DNA of 64,000 nt from Candidatus Eiseniibacteriota bacterium (GCA_963792585.1 CAWBWI010000001.1:1344001-1408000); one strand, 5' to 3'. Numbered from the stretch's first letter, positions 17,249 to 33,532 are shown. Notes: generated by a model not told the origin, from the sequence alone. A program made the numbers and translations.

Positions 17249-20200
17249 CTAGCGTAGCAGTGTAAGGGTCCGCGTGGCCTGCCTGCCGGTCCAATCGAGT
17301 CGCACGTAGTAGATCCCGCTGGCGAGCGGGCGGCCGTCGTCGTTGCGACCATCCCACACGATCGTCTGGCGACCCGCCGGAAGGACGCGATCGACGAGGA
17401 CCCGAACGCGGCGACCGGCCGGGTCGAAGATCCGGACTCGCACCTCACCCGCCCGGGGGAGATCGAAACGCAGCGTCGCCGTGTCACGAACCGGGTTGGG
17501 CGCGACCGGGAAGAAGGCGAACTGCAGCCGAACTGCCGCGGTCGCGACGACCGGCCCGAACGTGGACATCCCGCCACCCGGAAGTAGCGCCCCGATCTTG
17601 TATGAGTATGTCTCCCCTGGCTCGGCGGAGCCGTCACTGTATTCCCACGGTCCCCGTCCGGGTACCGGCTCCGAGGAGTTGAGAACCTCGTAGGCGTCCT
17701 CGGCGGCGTCCGCACCGGGCGCGCGCATGATCAGGAACCCGTCGAAGCTGGCATCCGGAACCTGCCAGGCAATCCGAATTCCGTCCTCCGACGGCGTGGC
17801 CTCGAGAGCTGTCAAGTCGATCGGGGTCAACGTCTCGCGCAGGAAGAAACCAGCCGGGTTCTTGAGGGACCCTCCGCCGACAACCAATCGGAACTCTCCC
17901 TGGTCATATCTGAACACGGCACCCTGTGCGGTTCCGAGCCGGTAGGGGTCCGCATCCATGTCGGTGACCATCAAGTGCCCCGCGGAGTCGAACTGAAGGT
18001 GGCTGAGTGCCCGGAACGTTCTCGAACTGCCCAGGACGGAGACGTTTCCAAAGGGGTCGACCTTGAAAACGGTGCCGCGGGCACTGGAGCCCGGGTATGG
18101 CTGCACGTCGCGGTCCGCAACATAGAGCATCCCATCGGGACCTACAGCACCCGCAACCGGTCCTCGAAAATCAGCAGAGGTCGCGTAGAGCGAGATCGTC
18201 CGCTGTGTGAGATCGAGTCGGAAGACCGCGCCGTTGCGCATGCCGAACCGCCCGGGATCGGCGTCCTGATCGATGATGAAGGCCCCACCCTGTCCATCGA
18301 GGACGATGTCGCGGGGCGCCACGAGCACGGTGTCGGTCGCGAATGGCGTGACCTCCCCAGCCGGCATCGACACATGGAAGACACCGCCCCGGATGTTGCC
18401 GGAGGCGCCTCCGAACGGGTTGGCCGTCGCATCGAGGATGAGGATCTCGCGATTGCTCAACACGACCGCGGCCAGCGGCTGTCGGAAGCTGGGGCTCGCC
18501 GCCGCTACCGAAACGTCGCTCGTGACGGGGTCCCAACGCCAGAGGCACCCCTGCGCGGGGAGCGGATAGTGCCTTGGGTTGGCGACGGCGTCGAGAATCA
18601 GCAATTCGGGGGGCTCCGTCGGGAGAGAAATGCAGGACACGGGCTGACTCGTCGAATCGGTTACGACCATCGCCGTCGTGAGCGAGTTGACCAGGCTGAT
18701 CTTGAACACGTTGCCCGGATTCCCACCGAATCGGAACGGATCCGCATCGGTGTCGGCGACGTACATGCAGCCTTCCTCGAAGTAGATCGGCAATCGAATC
18801 GAAACGCGACGGACACGATGGACCCCTTCCCGGGAGCGAAGATGAGAACGGAGGGCGAGAGCCGTTCCCTGCGGCGCGCCGGCACGCAGTCGCGTTCGAT
18901 AGGAGGCCTGGTACGAACTCCCCGGCGGCAGATCGACGACCCAGCTGACCGTGTTCGCGTTCTCGGTGGTCTGGATGATGCCGGCCTCGGCGTGCAGCGA
19001 GACACGGTCGAGCGAGGCGATGAGCGGGATCGTGTCGAGGTACGCCGCCGCGAGGGTGGCGATGGGGCCGGGATTCCCGACCCGCGCGGTGATCAGTAAC
19101 TCGTCCCCCGGCTGCAGGGGCTCGCCGTTCACGTCCTCGATCGTGTAGCTCGCAAGTCGCGGGTTGGGTCCGGGGAAGGAATACAGGCGCAACGGAGTGA
19201 CGTACTGACTCGAGGAAGCGATGGCATCCACGTGACCCGTCTCCGGATCCCAGCGGAAGAGGGTCCGGGGACTGCCGGGCTTCGACTCATCGCGGGCGAG
19301 CATGTCGACGATCCAGAGTTCGCCGCTCGGAGCGAAGGTCGCGCTTCTCGGGAGCCGGAAACGAAGATCCGCCACGGCGATCTTGTGCGTGTTCTGATCG
19401 GGATCGACCTGGAAGACGAGCCCTTGGCCGCCGGCGACGAATCGCGCGGCCTGATCGACGACGAGCAGACCCTCCCCCGGCCAATTCACGATTCCGATCG
19501 GCGCCAGGAAATCCGTGAACTGCACGGTTCGGACGACCGCGCCGGTCGCCGGATCGATTTGGAAGATGGCGCCACGGCCGGCTTCCGTAGGCCCATTTGG
19601 ATCGACGGCGCTATCCACCACCCAGTAGCGTCCCGCGTCGTCCTGCGCGATTTGAGTGGGCCGCGTGAGGGTCGTGTCCGCGGAGAACAGATCGAGGGTC
19701 GAGCTGCCCTGCCGCTTGATGAAGATCGCGGCGTGGGCCGGCTGTCCCACCTCGAGTCTCGCACTGGAGTCGATCACGAGCAGGTCCTGAGCATTTGTCC
19801 AGAAGAGGTCGATCGGGTTGCCGAGTCGTTCGTCGACGACGTAGGGGGTCGTGGTGCCGCGAAGATAGTCGACCTCCATGACCTGACCAGGTTCGAACCC
19901 TCGCGGATCTGCGACGAGCATTCTCCCCGCGTCGAGCTCGACCATTGCCGTCGGATCGACCCAAGTCGAGTCGGCCAGAAGCAGTTGATCGAATCGGCTG
20001 AGCTGGTTGTCCAGCAGGAAGAGCGCTCCATCCTGGTGACCGGTATGATTGGGATCCGCGTTGGCGTCGGTGAGCACCATCGCGCTTGTTCCCAGCGGAC
20101 CCACGACACGAATGGTCGCGGAGATCGGCGGCACGCCCGGTGGGCCGCTCACCCGGAGGACGCCGCTCACGGGGTCGCCGAAGGCGTGGCCCGGGAGCAC

Positions 20201-22861
20201 GCGCGCGAAGACATCGATACGCACCGTGTCGCCGGCCTCGACGCTTCCGAGCCAGGAGACGGCGCGGATGGGCGGGTCGACGATCACCCCGCCCGGCCCG
20301 GTGCCGCTCAGGAGTTCCACACCCGTGGAAAGGGTGATCGTCGCCATCGCCTCGGGGACCGACGTCTTGCCGGAGTTCCGGATCCTCGCTTCGAACCGGA
20401 TGGTGTCGCCCGCGCCCGTGGGCGTACCGCCGATGTCGACGACGCTCAGCGAACTGAGTGAGAGGCTCCCCTCCTCGAATCCCGCCACCGCCTCGGGGCT
20501 GTAGAGGAGCGGGTCGGCGGTCACGATCGTCGGCACGGTGAGATTCGGCTGGGCCTTGAAGACCGCTCCCCGGTCGCGCGGCGAGAGGTTGAACGGATTG
20601 GCATCGCGGTCGGTGATGATCAGCGATCCGTCGCGTTGCGGGTAGACGTCGGTGGGGTCGACGAGCACCGAGTCGGCCACGACGGTAAGGAACTCGTCGT
20701 CCGCCTCGCGGCGGATCTCGAAGACCGCTCCTGTGTTCCGATGTAGCCCCAACGGGTCGGCGCTCACGTCGGCGACGAATAGCCGACGCGCCGATCCTTC
20801 GGCGACGGCGACGGGGTCGACGAACTTCCCCGGGGGCACGTCGATGATGCGGAATCGTTCCTGCTCGCGGTCGTACTCGAACAATGCGCCGCCGTGCGGG
20901 TTCTGCCCGAACGGGTCGGCCTCGAAATCCACGATCATGATCTCGCCCGTCGTCTCCACGATCGCGTCGACCGGCTCTCGGAAGAAGGGGCTGGAGACGA
21001 TCAAGCTCAGGGCGCCCGTCCCTACGTCGAGAGAGAAGACGGCTCCCGGCTGTCCCGAGTAGCCGAGCGGGTTCGCATCCTTGTCGATCAAGAGCAGTTC
21101 GTGCTGTTCGCCCGCGGCCAAACCAAGCGGTGTGCGCAATTCCGGGTGATCGGCGACTGCGAGCAAGGTATCGACATGCCCGTTGAATGGATCGATGAGG
21201 AAGACCCCACCGCTCGGAGCATCAGGACCACGGGGTTGGCTTCGGCGATCCAGGACCGCGATTCTCCCGTCGGGCACGAAGCAGAGATCGGACGGTTGCA
21301 CGAGCGGAGGCCCGGAAAAGACGCGGGACGGGCGCACCGCCCCGGCGGGCATCTCCCAGATGATCCCTCGTGTCGACGTTCCCGCTGGCTCATAGTCCGC
21401 CCACACCACCCTTCCGGGTGATGAACGCCTCGCCACGGATTCGCTCAGTGTGAAGTCGACCTCCGCACGGTTGACCTTCAAGGTGACTCTCTCGCTCAGG
21501 CTCGTTCCCGCCGGCACGTTGCTCCGGAGCTTGATCTCGTAGCTGATGTCCACCTCGGCTTGGGATTCGATGTTGCCGGCCCAGCGGACGATGCGGGTCG
21601 AGGGGTCATAGCTGAAGCTCCCCGTCGCGGAGCTATCGGAGCCGATACGGTATTCCCAGTTTCCCCCCACGGAGTGCTCCAGGCGAACGGGCCTGCCGGC
21701 GAGACTCCCGGTGTTGCGGATCCTCGCGTGGACGCGCATTCGATCACCGGGCTGGAGCGGGGCGCCGTCGACATCCTCCCAACGGACCTGAGAGGAGTCG
21801 AGCGCAGTCCCGGCCACCTCGCTGATCCCCACGAGGGCTCGGAAGAACCCGGAGGTGTAGGTGTTCGTGACCTGACCGGTCGTGGGATCGCATTTGAAGA
21901 GCGCTCCCACAGCCGTTGGGTAGTTGGCCGGATTGGCTTGGTTGTCGACCACCCAAACGGCGCCGGCCGGATCGACGCTCATGTCGAACGGTTCGTTGAA
22001 GTCCGCCGGTGCGATGAGCGGATCGACGGCCAGCGAGCCGCGACGGACGCGGAAGACGCAGCCCGGCGCCCCCGCGTGTCCGCTGGGGTTCGCATTGCGG
22101 TCGAGGATCAGGTAGTCGCCGTTGCGATCCAGGGCTATCGCCCAAGGCGTGAGGAAGCCGCGGATCGAGAAGACGACGGAAACGTCGCCGGTCGTCATGT
22201 CCACACGAAAGAGCGCGCCCGGCGAGCCGCCGATCCCCAGCGGATCTGCGCGGACGTCCCAGATGAGAACCGATCCGTCCCGATCGAAGACCATCGAGCG
22301 CGGCTCGTCGAAGAGCGGGCTGGCGGCGATCAGGTTCACGAACGGGACATCGAGGCCTACCCGATAGAGAGCGCCGGGACGGTCGCCCCTGGCCAGTGGA
22401 TCCGCATCCGCGTCGAGGAGCAGGAGATTGCCGGAGGGCTCCTGCAGGATATCGATCGGGGCCTCCCACTGGTTGAAGTAGGCGAAGAGCGTCGCCCTGC
22501 CCGGGAGTTCGTCGTTCGGATCCACGACGAACATGGCGCCCTGGGCGCGACCGTTCTGTGTCGGGTCCGCGTTGGTGTCGACCACGATGATCCGCCCGTC
22601 GGCAAGAGCGAGGGAGGTCACCGGATCGACGAAGCCGGCAGGACTGGCCAGCAGCCGGATCGGAATGGCCGAAGTCGGGGCGGCGAGCATGATCGTTCCG
22701 CGGCCGTCCCCGTAGCCGAACGGGTCCGCAGTCCGGTCCGTGAGCATGAAGTTGCCGGCGCGCAGATCTACCGCGACCGCAAGGGCCGGGGCCATCGCGA
22801 CGAGGAGGGCGAGGAAGAGAATATGCGGGATCCCCGGACGGCGGGGACTCGGCAGTGCCAT
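17249..22861 (-). CDS. Giant secreted protein: four 6-bladed beta-propellers, three DUF11-like Ig domains, C-terminal FlgD-Ig/CTD-like domain
   Basis: Signal peptide; 24 D-x-x-A-[DN]-P...G-A-x-F-type blades; PGD..(I/V)xN.G domains; ends PNPVRDTATLRFDL...IFDPAGRRVRVL...WDGRNDDGRPLASGIYYVRL. Confidence 0.85.
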   Translation of the reverse strand: MALPSPRRPGIPHILFLALLVAMAPALAVAVDLRAGNFMLTDRTADPFGYGDGRGTIMLAAPTSAIPIRLLASPAGFVDPVTSLALADGRIIVVDTNADPTQNGRAQGAMFVVDPNDELPGRATLFAYFNQWEAPIDILQEPSGNLLLLDADADPLARGDRPGALYRVGLDVPFVNLIAASPLFDEPRSMVFDRDGSVLIWDVRADPLGIGGSPGALFRVDMTTGDVSVVFSIRGFLTPWAIALDRNGDYLILDRNANPSGHAGAPGCVFRVRRGSLAVDPLIAPADFNEPFDMSVDPAGAVWVVDNQANPANYPTAVGALFKCDPTTGQVTNTYTSGFFRALVGISEVAGTALDSSQVRWEDVDGAPLQPGDRMRVHARIRNTGSLAGRPVRLEHSVGGNWEYRIGSDSSATGSFSYDPSTRIVRWAGNIESQAEVDISYEIKLRSNVPAGTSLSERVTLKVNRAEVDFTLSESVARRSSPGRVVWADYEPAGTSTRGIIWEMPAGAVRPSRVFSGPPLVQPSDLCFVPDGRIAVLDRRSQPRGPDAPSGGVFLIDPFNGHVDTLLAVADHPELRTPLGLAAGEQHELLLIDKDANPLGYSGQPGAVFSLDVGTGALSLIVSSPFFREPVDAIVETTGEIMIVDFEADPFGQNPHGGALFEYDREQERFRIIDVPPGKFVDPVAVAEGSARRLFVADVSADPLGLHRNTGAVFEIRREADDEFLTVVADSVLVDPTDVYPQRDGSLIITDRDANPFNLSPRDRGAVFKAQPNLTVPTIVTADPLLYSPEAVAGFEEGSLSLSSLSVVDIGGTPTGAGDTIRFEARIRNSGKTSVPEAMATITLSTGVELLSGTGPGGVIVDPPIRAVSWLGSVEAGDTVRIDVFARVLPGHAFGDPVSGVLRVSGPPGVPPISATIRVVGPLGTSAMVLTDANADPNHTGHQDGALFLLDNQLSRFDQLLLADSTWVDPTAMVELDAGRMLVADPRGFEPGQVMEVDYLRGTTTPYVVDERLGNPIDLFWTNAQDLLVIDSSARLEVGQPAHAAIFIKRQGSSTLDLFSADTTLTRPTQIAQDDAGRYWVVDSAVDPNGPTEAGRGAIFQIDPATGAVVRTVQFTDFLAPIGIVNWPGEGLLVVDQAARFVAGGQGLVFQVDPDQNTHKIAVADLRFRLPRSATFAPSGELWIVDMLARDESKPGSPRTLFRWDPETGHVDAIASSSQYVTPLRLYSFPGPNPRLASYTIEDVNGEPLQPGDELLITARVGNPGPIATLAAAYLDTIPLIASLDRVSLHAEAGIIQTTENANTVSWVVDLPPGSSYQASYRTRLRAGAPQGTALALRSHLRSREGVHRVRRVSIRLPIYFEEGCMYVADTDADPFRFGGNPGNVFKISLVNSLTTAMVVTDSTSQPVSCISLPTEPPELLILDAVANPRHYPLPAQGCLWRWDPVTSDVSVAAASPSFRQPLAAVVLSNREILILDATANPFGGASGNIRGGVFHVSMPAGEVTPFATDTVLVAPRDIVLDGQGGAFIIDQDADPGRFGMRNGAVFRLDLTQRTISLYATSADFRGPVAGAVGPDGMLYVADRDVQPYPGSSARGTVFKVDPFGNVSVLGSSRTFRALSHLQFDSAGHLMVTDMDADPYRLGTAQGAVFRYDQGEFRLVVGGGSLKNPAGFFLRETLTPIDLTALEATPSEDGIRIAWQVPDASFDGFLIMRAPGADAAEDAYEVLNSSEPVPGRGPWEYSDGSAEPGETYSYKIGALLPGGGMSTFGPVVATAAVRLQFAFFPVAPNPVRDTATLRFDLPRAGEVRVRIFDPAGRRVRVLVDRVLPAGRQTIVWDGRNDDGRPLASGIYYVRLDWTGRQATRTLTLLR

Positions 22862-22969
22862 GGTCACTCCCCGAACGTGTGGTCGACAGGAGGCCCGTTC
22901 CTGGCCCCCCCAAATGATCGGCGCGACCAACTCATTGGCTGAGGCCTAAGTCCCCCTTCCGGCCCCCCC

Positions 22970-25306: not shown

Positions 25307-25780
25307 CTATTCGGCGGGTTCCTCTTCCGAAGCCTCGCCCGGAGGAGCGATCCCTGGCAGGGACAGGAGTTCGACCGCGCGGCTGACCAGACGTTCGGCG
25401 GCATCGAGGATCACACGCGTGTCCTTGCGGCCGCATCGGGCGCCCTCTTGGACGAGGTCCTTCTGATCCTTCGCGATCTTGAGCAGCTCGATCAGGTCGG
25501 GTGCGACCGCGCCGGGGGTCACGAACAGCCGGTTCACGCCCGCAACGAGGCTATAGAGATTCGTATCACGATAGCCGCCTGAGAGCAGGAGGCTCTTCGA
25601 GCTTCGGTACATGGCAAAGTACGACTGGACGATCGTTTCCTCGAAGCGGCCATCTCGAAAGCAGGAGCGGGCCTTGTCGAGTTCCGCAAGGGCAGTCGTG
25701 ATTTCCTTGACGAGAGTATCCTCGGGGGTCTCGACCGGTTTGAGACGGCCGTTTCGGATGCATGCCTCGAACGCATCCAC
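25307..25780 (-). CDS. Stand-alone HEPN-domain protein (degenerate)
   Basis: ALAELDKARSCF...SYFAMYRSSKSLLLSGGYR pattern of HEPN (DUF86/UPF0332-like). Confidence 0.7.
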   Translation of the reverse strand: MDAFEACIRNGRLKPVETPEDTLVKEITTALAELDKARSCFRDGRFEETIVQSYFAMYRSSKSLLLSGGYRDTNLYSLVAGVNRLFVTPGAVAPDLIELLKIAKDQKDLVQEGARCGRKDTRVILDAAERLVSRAVELLSLPGIAPPGEASEEEPAE

Positions 25781-25969: not shown

Positions 25970-27103
25970 TCAGGCCAGTGCGCGATCGATATCCTCGACG
26001 AGATCCTCCAGATCCTCGATGCCAACGGACAGGCGCAGGAGACCGTCGCTCAGACCGCGGCGGAGGCGATCCTCCCGCGGAATGGACGCGTGCGTCATTG
26101 TCGCGGGGTGGCACAAGAGGCTCTCGACCCCCCCCAAGCTCTCGGCCAGCGCGAAAAGGTGCGTCCGCGACGCAACCCGCTTGGCCTCCTCCAGGTCATC
26201 GAGAACGAAGGAGACGATTCCTCCAAACCCGCTCGCCTGCCCTTTGCAGATCTCATGTCCCGGGTGCTCCGGCAGGCCGGGGTAAAGGACCTTGCGGACC
26301 TTTGCGTGGCCGGAAAGGTGGCGCGCAACCGCCATCGCATTCGTCTGATGCCGATCCATACGGAGCGCGAGGGTCTTGACCCCGCGCATCGCAAGCCAGC
26401 AATCGAAGGGGCCCGGGACCGAACCGATCGCATTCTGCAGGAATCCGAGCCGCTCCGCGAGGTCGTCCTTCCCGGTGATGACGAGCCCCCCCACCATGTC
26501 GCAGTGCCCGTTGAGGTATTTCGTGGTCGAGTGAAGGACCAGATCGGCCCCCAGCTCGAGGGGACGCTGGAAATAGGGGGTCAGGAACGTGTTGTCGACC
26601 ACCATCAGGAGCCCATCCCGGCGCGCGATCCCCGCGACCGCCCTGAGGTCGACGATCTGCATGAGGGGATTCGTCGGCGTCTCGGCATAGATCATCCGTG
26701 TGGTCGGCTTGCGCGCCGCCGCGATCCGTTCCGGATCCGCCATGTCGACGTAGGTGAAATCGAGTCCGAGGTCCCGGAAGACCCGCTCGAAGATCCGGTA
26801 AGTCCCGCCGTACATGTCGTCGGAGGCGATCACGTGGTCGCCGCTCTTGAGAAGGTGCAGGACCGTCGAAATCGCCGCCAGGCCCGAGGAGAACGCGAAG
26901 CCATGGCGTCCCTTCTCGAGCGCCGCGACGCAGTGCTCCCAAGCGAATCGGGTCGGATTCTGCGTGCGCGCGTACTCGAATCCCTTGTGCTTCCCGATCG
27001 CCTCCTGCACGTACGTCGAGGTCTGATAGATCGGCGTGCTCACGGCTCCGGTCGTTGGATCCGGCTCCTGCCCGGCATGAATCGCATCGGTCGAAAAACC
27101 CAT
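25970..27103 (-). CDS. metB: Cystathionine gamma-lyase/gamma-synthase (PLP)
   Basis: PIYQTSTY, YARTQNPT, ETPTNP, VDNTF, HSTTKYLNGH, AESLGGVESL; start refined to MGFSTDAIH. Confidence 0.9.
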   Translation of the reverse strand: MGFSTDAIHAGQEPDPTTGAVSTPIYQTSTYVQEAIGKHKGFEYARTQNPTRFAWEHCVAALEKGRHGFAFSSGLAAISTVLHLLKSGDHVIASDDMYGGTYRIFERVFRDLGLDFTYVDMADPERIAAARKPTTRMIYAETPTNPLMQIVDLRAVAGIARRDGLLMVVDNTFLTPYFQRPLELGADLVLHSTTKYLNGHCDMVGGLVITGKDDLAERLGFLQNAIGSVPGPFDCWLAMRGVKTLALRMDRHQTNAMAVARHLSGHAKVRKVLYPGLPEHPGHEICKGQASGFGGIVSFVLDDLEEAKRVASRTHLFALAESLGGVESLLCHPATMTHASIPREDRLRRGLSDGLLRLSVGIEDLEDLVEDIDRALA

Positions 27104-27123: not shown

Positions 27124-28503
27124 CTATTGCGCGACGTATTCGATCAAATCGAAGCGGGTCAGGATCCCGATGATCCGGTCGCCGTCCACGACGAGCAGCG
27201 CTGCGTCTCGCTCCGCCAGCTTGCGGGCGGCTTCGGCGACGGCGGTGTCGGCGGCGATCCGGGGCAAGGGCGGCTCCATCCTGGAGGACACGGTGTCTTC
27301 GAGGTGCATGCTGCCTTCGATCAGACCCGCCATGAGGTTCGACTCGAGCACGGTCCCGACGAAGGAGCCATCGGGGCCCTGCACGGGCAATTGCGACACG
27401 TTGTGCGCGCGGATCAGGCGAAGAGCCTCGCGGATCGCATCCTCGCCGCGGACCGACACGAGGGAAGGCAACGCCGCTCCCTTGGCCCGCACGACGTCGC
27501 CGGCGCGCGCCGCCTCGGGGTCGACCATCCGATTGTCGCGGAGCCACTCGTCGTTGTGGAGCTTGCTGAGGTAGCGCTCTCCGGTGTCGGGGATCAGGAC
27601 GACGACGACCTGGCCCGCCTCCATCGTCTCTGCGATTCGGAAGGCGGCCTCGACGGCAGTTCCCGCCGAGCCTCCGCAGAGGATCCCCTCCTCACGCGCG
27701 AGCCGCCGGGCGATGCGGAATGATGAGCGGTCGTCGATGGTGAGGATCTCGTCGATCACACTGAAGTCGAGGGTGCCGGGGATGATGTCCTCACCGATTC
27801 CCTCTACGAGATAGCTGCGCGCCGGCCCATGCTGCCCGCTCTCGAACACCTCGCGCAGGATCGATCCGTCGGGATCGGCGCCGACGATGCGGATCTTCGG
27901 GTTCTTTTCCTTCAGGAACCGGCCGGTTCCGGAGATCGTTCCGCCCGTGCCCATCCCCGCGACGAAGGCGTCGATCCGGCCACCGGTCTGCTCCCAGATC
28001 TCGGGACCGGTCGTCATGTAGTGGATCTCGGGATTGTCGGGGTTGAAGTACTGGTTGGCGAGGAAGGCTCCGGGGATCTCGCGCGAGAGACGCCGCGCGA
28101 CCTCGTAGTAGCTCTCCGGCGAATCGGGGGGGACGGCGGTCGGGGTCACGATGACGCGCGCCCCGTAGGCCTTGATCAGGTTGATCTTCTCCCGGCTCAT
28201 CTTGTCGGGCATCGTGACGATCAGCTTGTAGCCCTTGACGGCCGCTGCGATCGCCAGCCCGCATCCGGTGTTGCCCGAGGTCGACTCGACGATGGTCCCG
28301 CCGGGCTTCAAGAGCCCCGCCTTCTCGGCTTTCTCGATGATGTGGACCCCGATGCGATCCTTCACGCTCCCGCCGGGATTGAAGTACTCGACCTTTGCCA
28401 GAACCAACGGCTTGAGCCCCTGAGCGACCCGATTGAGTCTGACCAGGGGGGTGTTACCGATCGTCTGAAGGATGTTCTCGGAGTAGGTGTGCCCAGGCTT
28501 CAC
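27124..28503 (-). CDS. cbs: Cystathionine beta-synthase with C-terminal CBS domains
   Basis: NPGGSVKDRIG, ESTSGNTG, GMGTGGT, EGIG, PDTGERYLSK plus a CBS pair. Confidence 0.93.
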   Translation of the reverse strand: MKPGHTYSENILQTIGNTPLVRLNRVAQGLKPLVLAKVEYFNPGGSVKDRIGVHIIEKAEKAGLLKPGGTIVESTSGNTGCGLAIAAAVKGYKLIVTMPDKMSREKINLIKAYGARVIVTPTAVPPDSPESYYEVARRLSREIPGAFLANQYFNPDNPEIHYMTTGPEIWEQTGGRIDAFVAGMGTGGTISGTGRFLKEKNPKIRIVGADPDGSILREVFESGQHGPARSYLVEGIGEDIIPGTLDFSVIDEILTIDDRSSFRIARRLAREEGILCGGSAGTAVEAAFRIAETMEAGQVVVVLIPDTGERYLSKLHNDEWLRDNRMVDPEAARAGDVVRAKGAALPSLVSVRGEDAIREALRLIRAHNVSQLPVQGPDGSFVGTVLESNLMAGLIEGSMHLEDTVSSRMEPPLPRIAADTAVAEAARKLAERDAALLVVDGDRIIGILTRFDLIEYVAQ

Positions 28504-28558
28504 GTACTTCTCCCTCCGCCACGCCCGGGCCGGGGGGAAACTACCCGCGCGGTGCCGA

Positions 28559-29914
28559 TCAGTGCTTGATTTTCGTCATGTAGGCTGCGAAATCCCAGCC
28601 CTTCGCCTTCCCCCACTCCCCCGTGTGGCACGCCGTACACGTCGCTTCCGTGATCGGCGCCGCCTTGTCGCCACGCGCATGCTGCGTTCCGATCGCGTGG
28701 CAGGATTCGCATCCGACATTCCGGAGATCCGGCTCTTTCAAATTCGCCGTGTAGCCACCGGCCTGTCCCGAGCCGGTCACATGGCAGGAGACGCACTGCG
28801 CGTCTGCCTGCTTCTGCTGGTTCTCGAGCACTGCGAAGGCGGTCGCGTGAGGCGTCGTGCGCCACTGCGCGTACTGCTCCTCATGGCACCGCTGACACTT
28901 CTCGCTGCCAAGGAATTTGTCCGAGGAGATCTTGGATTCGATCTCGGAAGCCTTCTTCTGCTGATCGACCTTGAGCATCTCCTTCGCCTGATCCTCGATT
29001 TGCTTGATCTGGGCCGTGATCTCGGCCTTCTCCGGGTAGACGGAATCGAGCGACGCATTGCGCGAGCCCCACTCCGCAACCTTCCCTGCCGGATCCACGA
29101 TCAAGACGAGTTCCCCAACGAACTGGCCCCGAAGCCCCGTCTGCTGGACGATGGTGTTCGTGGACTTTTGCGCCCGATCGATCCAGGCGGGCTGGCGGCC
29201 ATCGAGGGCCACGTCGATTCCCGGAACCTGCTTCAACAGCTCATCGGTCTCCTGCGGAGACATCTCCGACATCAGGACCACGATCTCGGCCTGCTTGCGC
29301 AGATCCAGCACGGACGCCCTGGCGACCGTGAGGGGGTCCTGCGGCCGGAATTCGATCCCTGCCGGAGGCTTGGCGGAGGAAACCTCGGCCGCCCCGATCA
29401 GGGAGAAGAATCCAACCCTCACCCCACCGATCTCCATGACATGGCTCGGCAGACCGGCGGGGGACTCCTTACCGTTCTCCACCACCGTGAGGTTCGTCGC
29501 GATCGATTTGATCGGGCTCGCCGAAACGAGCTCCCGGTAGAGAGTCCAATTCGTCAGTTCCCGGACGCCCGGAGTCGATGCGTTGTACCCCATCTGCTCC
29601 ATGAGCTTCCAGATGAAGCGCGTCTTCAGATCCCCCACCGTGAGCTCCGTGTTGGTGAAATCACCGAGGTCCACGAGGGCAAAGTCCTTGTTCCGCGCCC
29701 GGAGAGAGTCGATCAAGCTGGCCCGACGGGCCAGTCCGCCCTTCTGGCTAGAGTGTCACCCACAGGGGGCGAGTTCGCCGTTCGAACCGCCGAAGGAGAT
29801 CAGCATCACCTCTGCGTTCGTTTCCCGGCGATCGCTGCCCATCAAGCCGGCGCACCCGGCAAGGAGGGCGATACCCAAAAGGGCGAGCGTGGCGCGGCTG
29901 AAAATCCGCAACAT
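28559..29914 (-). CDS. UshA-like selenoprotein lipoprotein fused to a tetraheme cytochrome c (c554-like); in-frame TGA at 29756-29758 read as Sec53
   Basis: The two track ORFs are in the same frame; read-through gives ELAPCG-U-HSSQKGGLARRASLIDSL...VDLGDF; lipobox LAGC; CQRCH, CVSCH, CESCH, CTACH; GGAGG RBS. Confidence 0.85.
29718..29734 (-). promoter_or_regulatory. Candidate bacterial SECIS hairpin
   Basis: CTGGCCC-GTC-GGGCCAG; the loop starts with GU, 28 nt 3' of the UGA. Confidence 0.6.
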
Positions 29915-29972
29915 CCCAATTTCCTCCGTGTTCGCGGCCCGAGAAGACGGCCCTGAGCCCAACAGACAGAAC

Positions 29973-30001
29973 AGGTTACCACCCATCATCGGCAGGTTCA
30001 A
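29973..30001 (-). promoter_or_regulatory. sigma70 promoter of the selenoprotein gene
   Basis: TTGAAC-N17-TAACCT with an extended -10 TG. Confidence 0.55.
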
Positions 30002-30040
30002 GCTCTCCGCTGAGGCTGGAACTCACCGCGGCAAAGGCGG

Positions 30041-33000
30041 CTAACGGCGCTGCCGCTCCCACTTCACGTCGGGTAGCGACTTGACGTTAATGCGGAATGA
30101 GTACTCCGAGTTCCCTCCGGACATCCGCTTGTCGAAATGCATCTCCCAGCAGTGGAGGTCTCGATCGAGCGAAAGGGACTGCGAACGGATCTCCCGACGC
30201 CGCACATCGTAGTAGATGCTGTAACCAACGTGCCAGTTCCGAGTTGGAGCGAGACTCGTCGTGACGTTCAAGGCGTTCTGCTCGCTGGAACGGAGCGCTC
30301 CCCGCGTGTAGCTGTGGCTCATGGAGAGGGTCCAAGGTCCGCCGTAGGAGCCGGTCGCCTCCCCCGGACGACTCCGTGACTTCCCGGCCTGCCCGAAGCT
30401 GCCGTATTCGTCCTGCTGAGATCCACCCATCGAATCGCTTGGAGCGCCCCCACCGCCGCCCGAGATGTTGAACGTCGTCTGGACGGAGAGGGCCAGCATT
30501 CGCCGCGAGTAAGGATCGTGGGACAGGCTGACCGAGTTCTCGACGAATCGGGACGGCTTGAGCCGCATCGAGTTGGCGATCGTGCTCAGAGGGTGCTTCG
30601 CCTTCAGGAAGTCGTAGCTCGTCGAGGTCGTCAAGAGGATCAGGTTGTCGATCCGGTTCGGTTTGTGCGGGTCCTCTCCCCGCGTCTTCAGGTGAAAGCG
30701 CTGGGTCATCGAGAAGGAGGCGGCGCTCGCCTTCGATCCGGAAATCGAGATCCCCCCGACCGACGGGAATGCCGGCACGAGGCTCCCCGCCTCATTGCGG
30801 TAGCGCAGGTACTTCAGATCGGGCGCGAAGCGGTAGGTGACCGAGGGTTCGACGACATGGCGCAGCCCCACCAGGGGTCCGGCATTGATGGGGAACGTGC
30901 CATAGAGCGTGCTGCGGGCTGAGGCCCCCGTGTCCCACGCACCCGCGAATGCGTTGTTGCGCGCGCGAACGTCTCGGCGGAACCAGACCCCATTCGCCGA
31001 GATCGAGGGGGCGAACTTGACGAAGTTGCCGATCGAGCGGCTGTCGGTCAGCCCGGTGGAGATGCGGGCGGCCTGATTGTCGGTCATCTTCCCGCCCCAG
31101 GGCTGCAGGAAAGCGCTCCGGTACGAGGCGGAGAGGCGCGTGTAGACCGTCGACAGGAACGGCAGGCGCCCCCCACGGCCGCGATCGTCCGGCTTCGTTC
31201 CGATCGCGAAGGAGTTCAGCGCGTAGTCGATCGAGGGGATGTTCTGCTGGACCCGGTAGGAGGACGATGCCTTGTCCAGGTTCTCCGTTCGATCCGCGGT
31301 CAGCGAGATGCTCGACGTGGACCAGTTCTTCCGCAAGTCGACGTTCGAGCGAAGGATGCGATTCAGCCGCTCGTCGACGGACCCCCCGAAGGCCTGGTCG
31401 TCACGGTAGCTGGCGTCGCTCACGAAGTTCATGAGGAACTTGAGGGTCGACCGATCGCCGAGCTGCTGATCGTGATTCCCTCGCAGGTCCCATCGGGTTC
31501 TCTTCGTGGCGTCGCCGGTTTCCTTCGAGTAGGAGCCGAAGAACTGCCCGGAGAGGACGTAGCGAAGACGGTAGCGAACCTGGGAATTCAAGATCCAGCG
31601 TGGGCTCTGCTCGTAGTAGTCGCCCCAGACCATCGCGTCGCTATAGTCGTTGGGCGCCAGATAGTAGCCGATGTTCCGGAGGAAGCGTCCGCGGTTCTGA
31701 CTGAAACCGAACTCGATGTCGGGCATCAGCACGCCGGAATGACGCCCCTTTCGGATCGGGAAAACCCAGTAAGGGAGCGCCAGGACCGGGATGTTCTTCA
31801 TGTAGAGGAAAATCGGGCGCGCGACGACTCGTTCTCCGAGGCGAATCTTCATTCGGGACGAGTGAAAGTGATAGTGAGAGGTGTCGGCGTCGCAGGTGGT
31901 GTAGTCCCCGCCCTTGACGAGGAGGATCTTGCTGTCGACCCGCTTGATCTCCTCGCCGTCGTAGTAGCCGCCGTCGAACTCGGTCTTCCCCTGGTAGACG
32001 AATCCCTGCCGGCTGTCGAGCCGGTAGACCATCCTCTGGCCGACGAGTTCGCTGGTAGGATCTTTCAAGGTCGGTTTCCCGAGCGCCGTGACCCGATCGC
32101 GCGCGGCGTCGTACACGATTTCCTCCGAGTCGAGGGCCAGGTTCTGGTAGCGAACCTTCCCGTGACCCCGGACGACGATCGTGCGCTTGGGCACGAAGAA
32201 CGAGACGCTGTCCCCCTGGTAGGCGACCCGTTCGGCCGGATCGAAGGGGCCCGCCCGCGCGAGCGAGTCGGGTGAAGCGCTCTCGGCGCCGGCGAGGAAC
32301 CGCTCGGTGGTGCGTGCAAGATAGAGCGAGTCGGGCAGGGCCGCGACAGTGGTGTCCGGTTTCTCGCGCGGGAGGATGTACTCACCGCTCGCGTTGCGCT
32401 CCAGGTCGACCCGTTTTGCCTCTCCCGATTCGAGCCAGACCCGGATTCGGTCGCCTCGAGACTCGTTCTGGCCGACGTCCTCCTTACGGTCCTGAGGGGA
32501 CGGGATGTAGAGGCTGCGGGCGTGCCCGTTGACCTCGATCGCATAGACGCCGGTGGAATCCATCAGGGCGATCAGGGTGTCGCCGACGACGAGGTTGTGC
32601 TCGCCCGGCTTCGCGGACGGCTGGTAGAGGACCTGCGCGCGGCCAAGGACCTCGAGGCGTTCCGCCCGCCCCGCACCGAGGACCACGGCCATCGAGTCGC
32701 CCGTCACAACCCCGTCGGGATCGATCGCGTGCGGTTCGTCGCGCAAGCGCAGGAGGTCGCGGTTGAAGTCGAACTGGGCGCGGCCGCAGGTCGCGGTCAC
32801 GCTCCCCCGATGGATCCTCACATTGCCGAGCGCCTCTCCATAGGAGTTTCCCTTCTCCATCCGAAGCGTGTCCGCTCGGAGGTCCAGGTCCGCCTCGCCA
32901 TCGCGCCCCTCGCGGTGGAGCCGCGGATTTCCCGTGACGATCGTCACGTCCGTGACGCGATCGATCTCGCACCTGCGGCCGGTGATCTTCGCCGCCTCGG

Positions 33001-33532
33001 CGGCATCGACGATCACGACGCTGTCCGTCGCGACGGCCCTGCGCGTGGGCGTGTCGTAGACCAGGCGCCGTGCCCGCAGAATGCGTCCCGCATCTTCCAG
33101 ACGGACGCTGTCGCGCAACTCGAGCTTTCCGGATTCCCTCCAGTACCAGAGTTCGTGCGCCTCGAAGCGCCCCTCGGGACCTTCTCCCCGCACGTTCCCC
33201 GTCATGATCGCCAGGCCCTGTCTCCGGTCGAAGCTCGCGCGGTCCGACCTCACCGTGCGGACGGAGTCGCGCAGGACCACGTCCGCGGTCAGATTCAACA
33301 GGTCGTCCTCGCGATACCAGAGTCCCTCGCGCGCGGTCACGACCGTGCTTCCTTGCTCCGCCCGCGGCGAAACGAGCGTCGTCACGCCGGCCCGCGTTCC
33401 TTCGAGCCGCTCCCCCGTGATCGTCCAAGGCTCGTCCGCGAGGTCGCCCGGCGCTTGCGCGAAGGCCCCCGAGGCCACGAAGAAGACGATCGCCGTGAGC
33501 CAAGAGCGAATCATCGCGAAGGCGACTCCCAT
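30041..33532 (-). CDS. lptD: LPS assembly protein LptD with extended OstA-like N-terminus
   Basis: Signal peptide, repeated OstA jelly-rolls, YTTC...HYHF, RHSGVLMP, RDLHCWE, C-terminal barrel. Confidence 0.88.
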   Translation of the reverse strand: MGVAFAMIRSWLTAIVFFVASGAFAQAPGDLADEPWTITGERLEGTRAGVTTLVSPRAEQGSTVVTAREGLWYREDDLLNLTADVVLRDSVRTVRSDRASFDRRQGLAIMTGNVRGEGPEGRFEAHELWYWRESGKLELRDSVRLEDAGRILRARRLVYDTPTRRAVATDSVVIVDAAEAAKITGRRCEIDRVTDVTIVTGNPRLHREGRDGEADLDLRADTLRMEKGNSYGEALGNVRIHRGSVTATCGRAQFDFNRDLLRLRDEPHAIDPDGVVTGDSMAVVLGAGRAERLEVLGRAQVLYQPSAKPGEHNLVVGDTLIALMDSTGVYAIEVNGHARSLYIPSPQDRKEDVGQNESRGDRIRVWLESGEAKRVDLERNASGEYILPREKPDTTVAALPDSLYLARTTERFLAGAESASPDSLARAGPFDPAERVAYQGDSVSFFVPKRTIVVRGHGKVRYQNLALDSEEIVYDAARDRVTALGKPTLKDPTSELVGQRMVYRLDSRQGFVYQGKTEFDGGYYDGEEIKRVDSKILLVKGGDYTTCDADTSHYHFHSSRMKIRLGERVVARPIFLYMKNIPVLALPYWVFPIRKGRHSGVLMPDIEFGFSQNRGRFLRNIGYYLAPNDYSDAMVWGDYYEQSPRWILNSQVRYRLRYVLSGQFFGSYSKETGDATKRTRWDLRGNHDQQLGDRSTLKFLMNFVSDASYRDDQAFGGSVDERLNRILRSNVDLRKNWSTSSISLTADRTENLDKASSSYRVQQNIPSIDYALNSFAIGTKPDDRGRGGRLPFLSTVYTRLSASYRSAFLQPWGGKMTDNQAARISTGLTDSRSIGNFVKFAPSISANGVWFRRDVRARNNAFAGAWDTGASARSTLYGTFPINAGPLVGLRHVVEPSVTYRFAPDLKYLRYRNEAGSLVPAFPSVGGISISGSKASAASFSMTQRFHLKTRGEDPHKPNRIDNLILLTTSTSYDFLKAKHPLSTIANSMRLKPSRFVENSVSLSHDPYSRRMLALSVQTTFNISGGGGGAPSDSMGGSQQDEYGSFGQAGKSRSRPGEATGSYGGPWTLSMSHSYTRGALRSSEQNALNVTTSLAPTRNWHVGYSIYYDVRRREIRSQSLSLDRDLHCWEMHFDKRMSGGNSEYSFRINVKSLPDVKWERQRR

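Follow-up and report, generated by a model that had tools for sequence, protein, structure and literature searches.

The window analysed here, a stretch of 64,000 nucleotides from a Candidatus Eiseniibacteriota bacterium, carries on its minus strand (28559..29914) what, judged from its sequence, is a single hidden CDS for a predicted exported lipoprotein, in which a selenocysteine (Sec)-bearing N-terminal domain of nucleotidase fold is fused with a c554-like tetraheme cytochrome. By analogy with the multiheme cytochrome MccSep, we propose that this protein may act as a periplasmic Sec/heme reductase of S-S bonds, a reading to which we give a probability of about 0.45. A periplasmic redox role fits the anatomy predicted from the sequence and redox coupling of the Sec residue and the hemes seems probable; polysulfide or persulfide as the specific substrate is a tentative and rather doubtful choice.

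The frame comprises 451 codons, and its assignment as one CDS with one TGA read as Sec follows from the translation together with a match to the NCBIfam model NF041198. As the first-pass annotation of this DNA had reported, codon 53 is a TGA (29758-29756), the sole in-frame stop of the minus-strand frame, located within ELAPCG-TGA-HSSQKGGLARR and giving Cys51-Gly52-Sec53 at 29756..29764. A ribosome-binding-site-like GGAGG (29923..29927) lies 8 nt 5′ of the ATG, and neither a sigma-70 promoter nor an intrinsic terminator was found within 28400-30300. The N-terminus is a lipoprotein-type signal peptide (29852..29914) with the lipobox L-A-G-C21, which ends at Cys21 and hence upstream of the TGA, again as had been annotated. 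A simple pattern detects a lipobox-like sequence in 26/60 of the Sec copies from the phylum, and an N-terminal hydrophobic stretch is present in 71 of 73 copies; judging from these sequences, the export signal is kept across copies and the lipid anchor is variable. The expectation that standard gene callers would split the gene also proved to be real, given that a 385-aa ORF begins 3′ of the TGA and that most of the closest database proteins span only ~80-85% of the query. Standard gene calling thus cuts the gene in two, with loss of both the signal peptide and the Sec site.

Comparison of homologues and the gene content of the genome make it almost certain that the TGA at codon 53 is decoded as Sec. 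The genome (84% complete) contains selA, selB and a tRNA-Sec (anticodon TCA), together with a selD that carries an in-frame TGA of its own, and so the Sec machinery that the annotated reading presupposes is present in full; four cytochrome c assembly protein matches were also found. This machinery argues against the alternative of a true stop, or of a sequencing error, at codon 53, leaving a pseudogene or two separate products, which we consider scarcely credible, and so does the heme domain, which requires the signal peptide encoded upstream of the TGA. A sequencing error is further opposed by a public DNA contig (run X1, possibly the source sample) that spans 29609-30349 and differs from the window only at 30122. 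The TGA, which the first-pass annotation held should be confirmed in reads, is unchanged in this contig, as is the hairpin downstream of it; the confirmation extends to X1 alone and to contigs, the read data consisting of four runs that were all assembled contigs. An RNA-library contig over 28466-30072 has a depth of 22.6 versus ~2-6 in the flanking contigs, figures which, coming from contigs, show neither transcription nor its level.

Within the phylum, 75 copies were compared, taken from 60 wide loci (a non-random choice among the best listed matches, guided by score and contig size), the window and the paralogue locus of its own genome; at the Sec column 60 have TGA, 13 have Cys and two (L076 and L077) were misaligned and were left out. 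A wider set of 80 loci came from an all-genome scan, and after removal of seven without the full motif the remaining 73 have G-(Cys/TGA)-x-GG and, further on, three or four CxxCH, with TGA in 35 and Cys in 38; ten Eisenbacteria-named or duplicate loci were excluded from the outside-phylum counts, leaving 63. The alternation of TGA and Cys by which the annotated Sec could be recognized in homologues is thus seen in both sets, in counts that are partly selected because rows were retained only if they had TGA or Cys at position 53. Across phyla, TGA is kept in 85 copies and Cys is found in 51 others, which is difficult to reconcile with a true stop, and a FastTree phylogeny of the N-domain requires at least 12 Sec/Cys changes, 10 of them forced by well-supported branches. 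A selA match is present in 181/201 genomes of the phylum (116/121 of those of high quality). In eight genomes that are 75-86% complete a TGA copy is present and selA gave no match, as a true stop would allow; against this, G043, which is 94% complete and likewise without selA match, carries a Cys copy only.

The SECIS-like hairpin CTGGCCC-GTC-GGGCCAG (29718..29734, minus strand) overlaps the L-A-R-R-A-S codons. A 7-bp hairpin with a GU-starting loop had been described 28 nt downstream of the TGA, and this structure was found, the distance being that of the loop, since the 5′ arm already begins 21 nt past the TGA. By itself the region folds no better than shuffles (z values of -0.09, 0.49 and -0.31 for three spans), a point on the side of a true stop, and for this hairpin only the comparative test is informative. 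In the genome a hairpin so positioned follows 60 of the 121,493 TGA triplets in its 7-bp form and 344 in its 5-bp form. Among the phylum copies, a 5-bp stem with a GG- or GT-starting loop accompanies 59/60 TGA versus 1/13 Cys copies, and outside the phylum 18/25 versus 3/38. The pair formed by the Leu and Ala codon wobble positions is G-C in 40 of the 60 copies, C-G in 13, G-T in five, and T-G and A-T in one each. All 33 distinct segments pair, versus a shuffle mean of 21.3, and none of 10,000 shuffles equalled this figure, to which kin do not contribute independently. Hairpin conservation, as read from these alignments, follows TGA versus Cys, with a compensatory G-C/C-G pair at the two wobble positions, and we retain the reading of codon 53 as Sec.

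Three more exported selenoprotein candidates were noticed outside the window, on the minus strand of contig G000:C6 of the same genome, with TGA at 970444, 968110 and 900851. Each has a signal peptide, U-x-x-C after (E)E(D/E)FG and a frame that stays open for >600 codons downstream; ~20 nt past the TGA comes a G-starting hairpin whose core is like that of the window gene.

The best NCBIfam match of the window protein is NF041198 (UshA_like_PCGU; E 9.8e-67, over both domains), to which it aligns at positions 18-269 and 352-511 of 519. The P-C-G-U motif, the UshA-like N-domain and the c554-like C-domain are shared, and since the model contains both domains the fusion is already catalogued; the differences are a score of 225.7 bits versus a cut-off of 275 and ~70 model positions between the domains that the window protein leaves unmatched. 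All of the 63 aligned orthologues match NF041198, and its cut-off is reached in only 1/41 genomes searched, so that the clade lies mostly outside the curated model. In another scan 2/14 proteins pass (295.3 and 279.5 bits), and the best orthologue in A1 (E 4.7e-89) is above the cut-off by the scale of that 14-protein scan. Because of its score, and because few of its clade pass, we regard the protein, on sequence comparison, as a divergent relative within the broad UshA-like CxU selenoprotein kind and not as a member of the NF041198 equivalog; lying below the cut-off, the split gene would not be rescued by the curated model. Its place in the broad kind follows from C51-G-U53 within a domain of UshA fold (Z 33.3 to 2z1a). 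It falls well short of NF049981, UshA-like (seleno)protein family 2 (36.5 bits versus 140 needed), whose motif is CxxU in the accessible part of PMC13188914 as opposed to CxU here, and, on the side of cytochrome c554, scores 51.7 bits versus a cut-off of 400 with NF043010.

UshA-like proteins (COG0737, CxU) are listed as selenoproteins in PMC2398784, which counts 76 GOS sequences, in PMC9312934 and in PMC13188914; the portions of these papers that were available give no function and make no mention of a heme domain. Listings of the family go back to 2008 or earlier, and neither a functional study nor a functional test of UshA-like CxU selenoproteins was found in the literature searched, some papers of possible relevance lying outside that search. 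The same literature held nothing pairing Eisenbacteria with selenocysteine, or nucleotidase with selenocysteine and c554, and the name UshA is absent from the main texts of deep-Sep and BSepDB and from one BSepDB supplement. The architecture of P-C-G-U, UshA-like and c554-like parts was thus already known from the public NF041198 model; new here are the phylum-wide occurrence, the gene context, the loss of metal ligands, the ligand count of heme 2 and the optional nature of Cys51.

An AlphaFold2 model built from 63 sequences (mean pLDDT 93.7, pTM 0.74) places a 5′-nucleotidase N-terminal (metallophosphoesterase-fold) domain at residues ~34-315 (28970..29815, minus strand), with its metal ligands lost according to the model, the fold match and the ligand columns. 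These residues match 2z1a with a VIA Z of 33.3 (rmsd 2.4 over 279 residues), 1ush with a Z of 30.4 and SoxB 2wdc with a Z of 30.1. The fold, the hinge helix and the GG-x-ARR helix are shared with UshA and SoxB, and a 35-residue linker helix (residues ~297-331; 28922..29026, minus strand; helix 270-304 of the mature-numbered model) is predicted to be the extended counterpart of the nucleotidase hinge helix. Unlike UshA and SoxB, the window protein lacks the di-metal ligands and the catalytic His, and has a cytochrome instead of the substrate-binding C-domain. The degenerate phosphoesterase motifs GGSNG and GVRE are as the first-pass annotation gave them. At the eight ligand positions (DxH, GD, GNH, H and HxH), which we take to be those given by E. 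coli numbering, the protein has G43, N45, D85, V117, R118, E217, R240 and P242, so that Asp85 is the only ligand kept and the di-metal set of an active 5′-nucleotidase or SoxB is absent. No conserved nucleotidase metal-ligand column was found in a 136-row alignment, in contrast with G52, Sec/Cys53 and the heme residues, which are conserved, and from these columns the phosphoesterase metal site is judged to be lost.

The same data bear on the alternative that the N-domain is still a metal site or a hydrolase, such as a sulfur-oxyanion hydrolase resembling SoxB or a domain that binds or senses metal, in which Cys51 and Sec53 replace His/Asp ligands and the hemes do a separate job. Such a view would gain from the position of the C-G-U loop, which in alignments with 5′-nucleotidases comes directly after the first metal-ligand motif of the fold, from a match to SoxB nearly as good as that to nucleotidases (Z 30.1 versus 33.3), from the single ligands kept in some lineages (Asp at the D84 column in 65/136 rows, His at H217 in 45/136 and at H252 in 46/136) and from the existence of heme-less copies. 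It has to contend with the fact that no ligand column is conserved family-wide, the window protein itself keeping 1/8, and with the replacement of the nucleotidase substrate-binding C-domain by the cytochrome, and we consider it quite improbable beside a Sec/heme reductase.

Cys51 is present in 130/136 rows, being missing from 6/85 Sec copies and from 0/51 Cys copies. The Cys-Sec selenenyl-sulfide centre imagined in the first-pass annotation can hence not be an obligatory one, and an obligatory Cys51-Sec53 bond was rejected on these counts. As Cys51 is dispensable in some Sec copies and kept in all Cys copies, the selenol of Sec53 appears, from this alignment, to be the working group and the Cys-Sec bond to be optional. 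The Sec copies without the first Cys are L060, L062, L063, L066 and L071 (family f4) and L155, with the motifs A-S-G-U, A-V-G-U, P-T-G-U, V-V-G-U, T-V-G-U and P-A-G-U among the set, and represent natural variants useful for the role of Cys51. Arg63/Arg64 was also considered as an anion site like R83 of MccSep and was rejected; GG-V/L-ARR occurs in ordinary 5′-nucleotidases too, so that conservation of the two Arg residues does not speak for anion binding, and that the codons of the pair form the SECIS is a further ground for rejection.

Residues 332-451 (28562..28921, minus strand) form a c554-like tetraheme domain that belongs to PF13435 (E 3e-17; 63.8 bits versus a cut-off of 20.8), with three distal His residues and the four CxxCH motifs previously annotated, which start at residues 340, 374, 402 and 426 (28897, 28795, 28711 and 28639, minus strand). 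In the model this domain matches cytochrome c554 (1bvb) with a Z of 11.5, an rmsd of 2.5 and 37% identity over 119 residues and, taken with the matches of the N-domain to 2z1a, 1ush and 2wdc, this indicates that at the end of the 35-residue helix the cytochrome stands where nucleotidases have their substrate-binding domain. The distal residues His356, His412 and His451 are kept in 128, 126 and 123 of the 136 rows respectively (10 rows being heme-less), and a conservation of ≥85% is reached by none of the remaining Met, His or Cys residues of the heme domain in this alignment. With three conserved distal His residues for four hemes, one heme is left without a sixth protein ligand; by homology, and on the assignment of distal His residues to individual hemes that we assume, this is likely to be heme 2, which would offer an open site. 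Nitrosomonas cytochrome c554 (1bvb) and the c554-like module of OcwA (6i5b) share the four CxxCH, the fold and a heme 2 without distal ligand, and the window domain differs from them in being shorter, in its fusion to a Sec domain and in having no adjacent hao-type genes. In c554, OcwA and MccA, heme 2 acts as the active site, according to the available part of 10.1101/641308.

An open heme 2 on a c554-like domain might instead serve periplasmic detoxification of peroxide or reactive nitrogen. Either H2O2 or hydroperoxides would be reduced by Sec, or NO or hydroxylamine would be bound at heme 2, and the hemes would hold the reserve of electrons. A wide spread over lifestyles is consistent with such a role, as is the fusion of a similar heme domain to AhpC/TSA redoxin domains in other database proteins; recurring peroxidase-type neighbours are lacking and the Sec residue does not sit within a glutathione-peroxidase or peroxiredoxin fold, and for these reasons we find detoxification improbable.

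The redoxin fusions (P0058, P0060, P0062-P0064, P0067, P0069, P0071 and P0095), of ~630-710 aa, are a second thiol-redox plus c554 architecture. On the plus strand of G000:C6, at 879840-882474, a nine-CxxCH predicted lipoprotein is followed by a stand-alone c554-like tetraheme protein.

The preferred reading, that of a Sec/heme reductase, draws on the MccSep/ExtKL family (NF040886), with which the window protein shares export, a multiheme cytochrome c, one Sec contributed by a non-heme domain and a heme 2 without distal His. MccSep is the polysulfide reductase of Geobacter sulfurreducens and, as described in the accessible part of PMC13510729, carries five hemes, of which heme 2 is ligated by His/Cys, and bears its Sec in a C-terminal Ig-like domain; the Sec from this separate domain works beside heme 2 in polysulfide reduction. 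The window protein has, by comparison, four hemes, an N-terminal Sec domain of nucleotidase fold and no conserved Cys heme ligand, and its heme domain matches NF040886 weakly (24.9 bits, cut-off 250), outside the family. The likeness is one of analogy, not of membership, and the Sec sites are not homologous.

On this analogy, the logic of MccSep would operate on an unrelated Sec-carrying scaffold. Three bis-His hemes would store electrons from a periplasmic or membrane donor and pass them to the open heme 2, and the selenolate of Sec53, on a loop beside the dead metal site, would attack an S-S bond, most likely that of a polysulfide or persulfide and less likely a protein disulfide. Contact of the Sec domain with heme 2 could be made inside one chain, or between adjoining subunits by means of the long helix; heme 2 would then reduce the Se-S adduct, and Cys51 could serve, though it need not, as resolving thiol or heme ligand. 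The 35-residue helix that separates the domains in the model (pTM 0.74) counts against this proposal. The ligand count, the optional Cys51 and the precedent of MccSep together lead to a precise and testable mechanism, with Sec acting at the open heme 2, and the natural Cys-form homologues allow testing without Sec expression.

A protein search at E ≤ 1e-15 matched a homologue in 197/201 genomes of the phylum and in 120/121 of those of high quality. Judged by sequence, the gene is thus near-core across an entire uncultured phylum, probably Ca. Eisenbacteria, under which name its nearest named relatives are recorded. Wider homologues, according to database records, belong to Krumholzibacteria, Acidobacteriota, Planctomycetota including Scalindua, Verrucomicrobiota, Nitrospirota, Armatimonadota, Myxococcota and others. 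The N-domain tree obtained with FastTree has several long branches, which makes its deep placements unsure. Heme-less copies that keep C-G-C/U occur at about five separate points in it, so the motif can exist without hemes of its own; the tie between the Sec centre and a heme wire that was first supposed is not obligatory, such copies having arisen about five times, and this too counts against a Sec/heme reductase. One heme-less Sec copy, L057, is a frameshift.

In the same tree, two tandem heme-less Cys copies from the genome of the window are sister to the window gene. These D-C-G-C paralogues are located at L007:580-2550 (G000:C3 ~1149900-1151900), ~14 kb from selB, and the first of them lacks an internal in-frame stretch of ~80 residues. 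G000:C1:649524-650414 (minus strand) encodes a short UshA-like copy that is exported, has P-C-A-C and lacks hemes. Sec tetraheme and Cys tetraheme copies stand in tandem in L074, L092, L094, L100 and L070, possibly as a backup under selenium limitation.

Upstream of the gene lies an LptD-type protein (30041..33532, minus strand; PF19838, E 1.9e-56), and downstream a protein with PALP and CBS domains by domain search (27124..28503, minus strand), apparently of cystathionine β-synthase (CBS) type, followed by a Cys/Met PLP enzyme (25970..27103, minus strand; PF01053, E 3.3e-141; start codon presumed), which would be of cystathionine γ-lyase/synthase (CGL) type. CBS-like and CGL-like enzymes make H2S and persulfide. 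Their genes are downstream in 29/61 and 33/61 phylum loci respectively, some of which stop at contig ends, and this we count in favour of a Sec/heme reductase. Outside the phylum, where a custom ORF picker called 204 neighbours (a maximum of two per side), no CBS or CGL gene was found beside the homologue in 63 loci, and the association may therefore be plain synteny. No family-wide operon or neighbour was found in these 63 loci either, so that synteny is a hint and not a functional link; the neighbours vary and include Maf/GatC, DUF4340, a secretin and, in 4/71 scanned neighbours, DUF1573.

The neighbouring lptD suggests a further alternative, envelope thiol-redox housekeeping, in which the protein would supply or accept electrons for disulfide rearrangement of exported proteins, LptD especially, as a stand-in of the DsbC/DsbD kind. 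LptD needs disulfide rearrangement, the LptD of the window keeps Cys in its ‘TTC’ and ‘HCW’ stretches, and lptD is upstream of the homologue in 48/61 phylum loci and in 9/63 outside loci (some of them Krumholzibacteria); DsbA- or thioredoxin-like proteins make up 3/71 scanned neighbours. Presence in 197/201 genomes is also as such a role would have it, and near-universal occurrence in the phylum, together with that in Scalindua (anammox), Verrucomicrobiota, Acidobacteriota and Armatimonadota, looks more like housekeeping than like sulfur respiration. Weighing on the other side, lptD is not among the called neighbours of 54/63 wider loci, a thioredoxin fold is lacking from the protein and some Sec copies do without Cys51, so a specific service to exported disulfides has a low probability in our view, and reduction of S-S bonds by Sec and heme is still the reading we favour.

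If the separate lines are joined, the protein could be a second, independently evolved selenium-heme catalyst, with Sec acting at the open heme 2 as a polysulfide or persulfide reductase, a combination that we consider unlikely as a whole. Here the substrate-binding domain of a dead 5′-nucleotidase would have given way to a c554 tetraheme unit, and the old hinge helix would carry the C-G-U loop to heme 2 on its open face, where Cys51 or Sec53 would be the sixth ligand and periplasmic polysulfide or persulfide would be reduced; the heme-less Cys copies, which were duplicated repeatedly, would borrow the catalyst's hemes as partner subunits. If true, such a catalyst would belong to the core genes of Ca. 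Eisenbacteria, would be linked to the sulfur output of CBS and CGL, and could be a main reason why the phylum keeps its Sec machinery, to go by selA in 116/121 high-quality genomes.

Some further genes near the homologues deserve mention. Homologues from several unrelated phyla (L117, L148, L163, L170 and clusters) have DUF1573 Ig-like proteins encoded upstream, and in L117 a rhodanese gene is also adjacent. Within the window, a conserved gene of 157 aa at 25307-25780 (minus strand) is downstream in 20/61 phylum loci and looks HEPN-like by eye, with no Pfam match at 1e-3. At 17249-22930 (minus strand) there is an exported repeat protein of 1893 aa, which by eye has many short NHL/β-propeller-like repeats and a C-terminal sorting-type domain.
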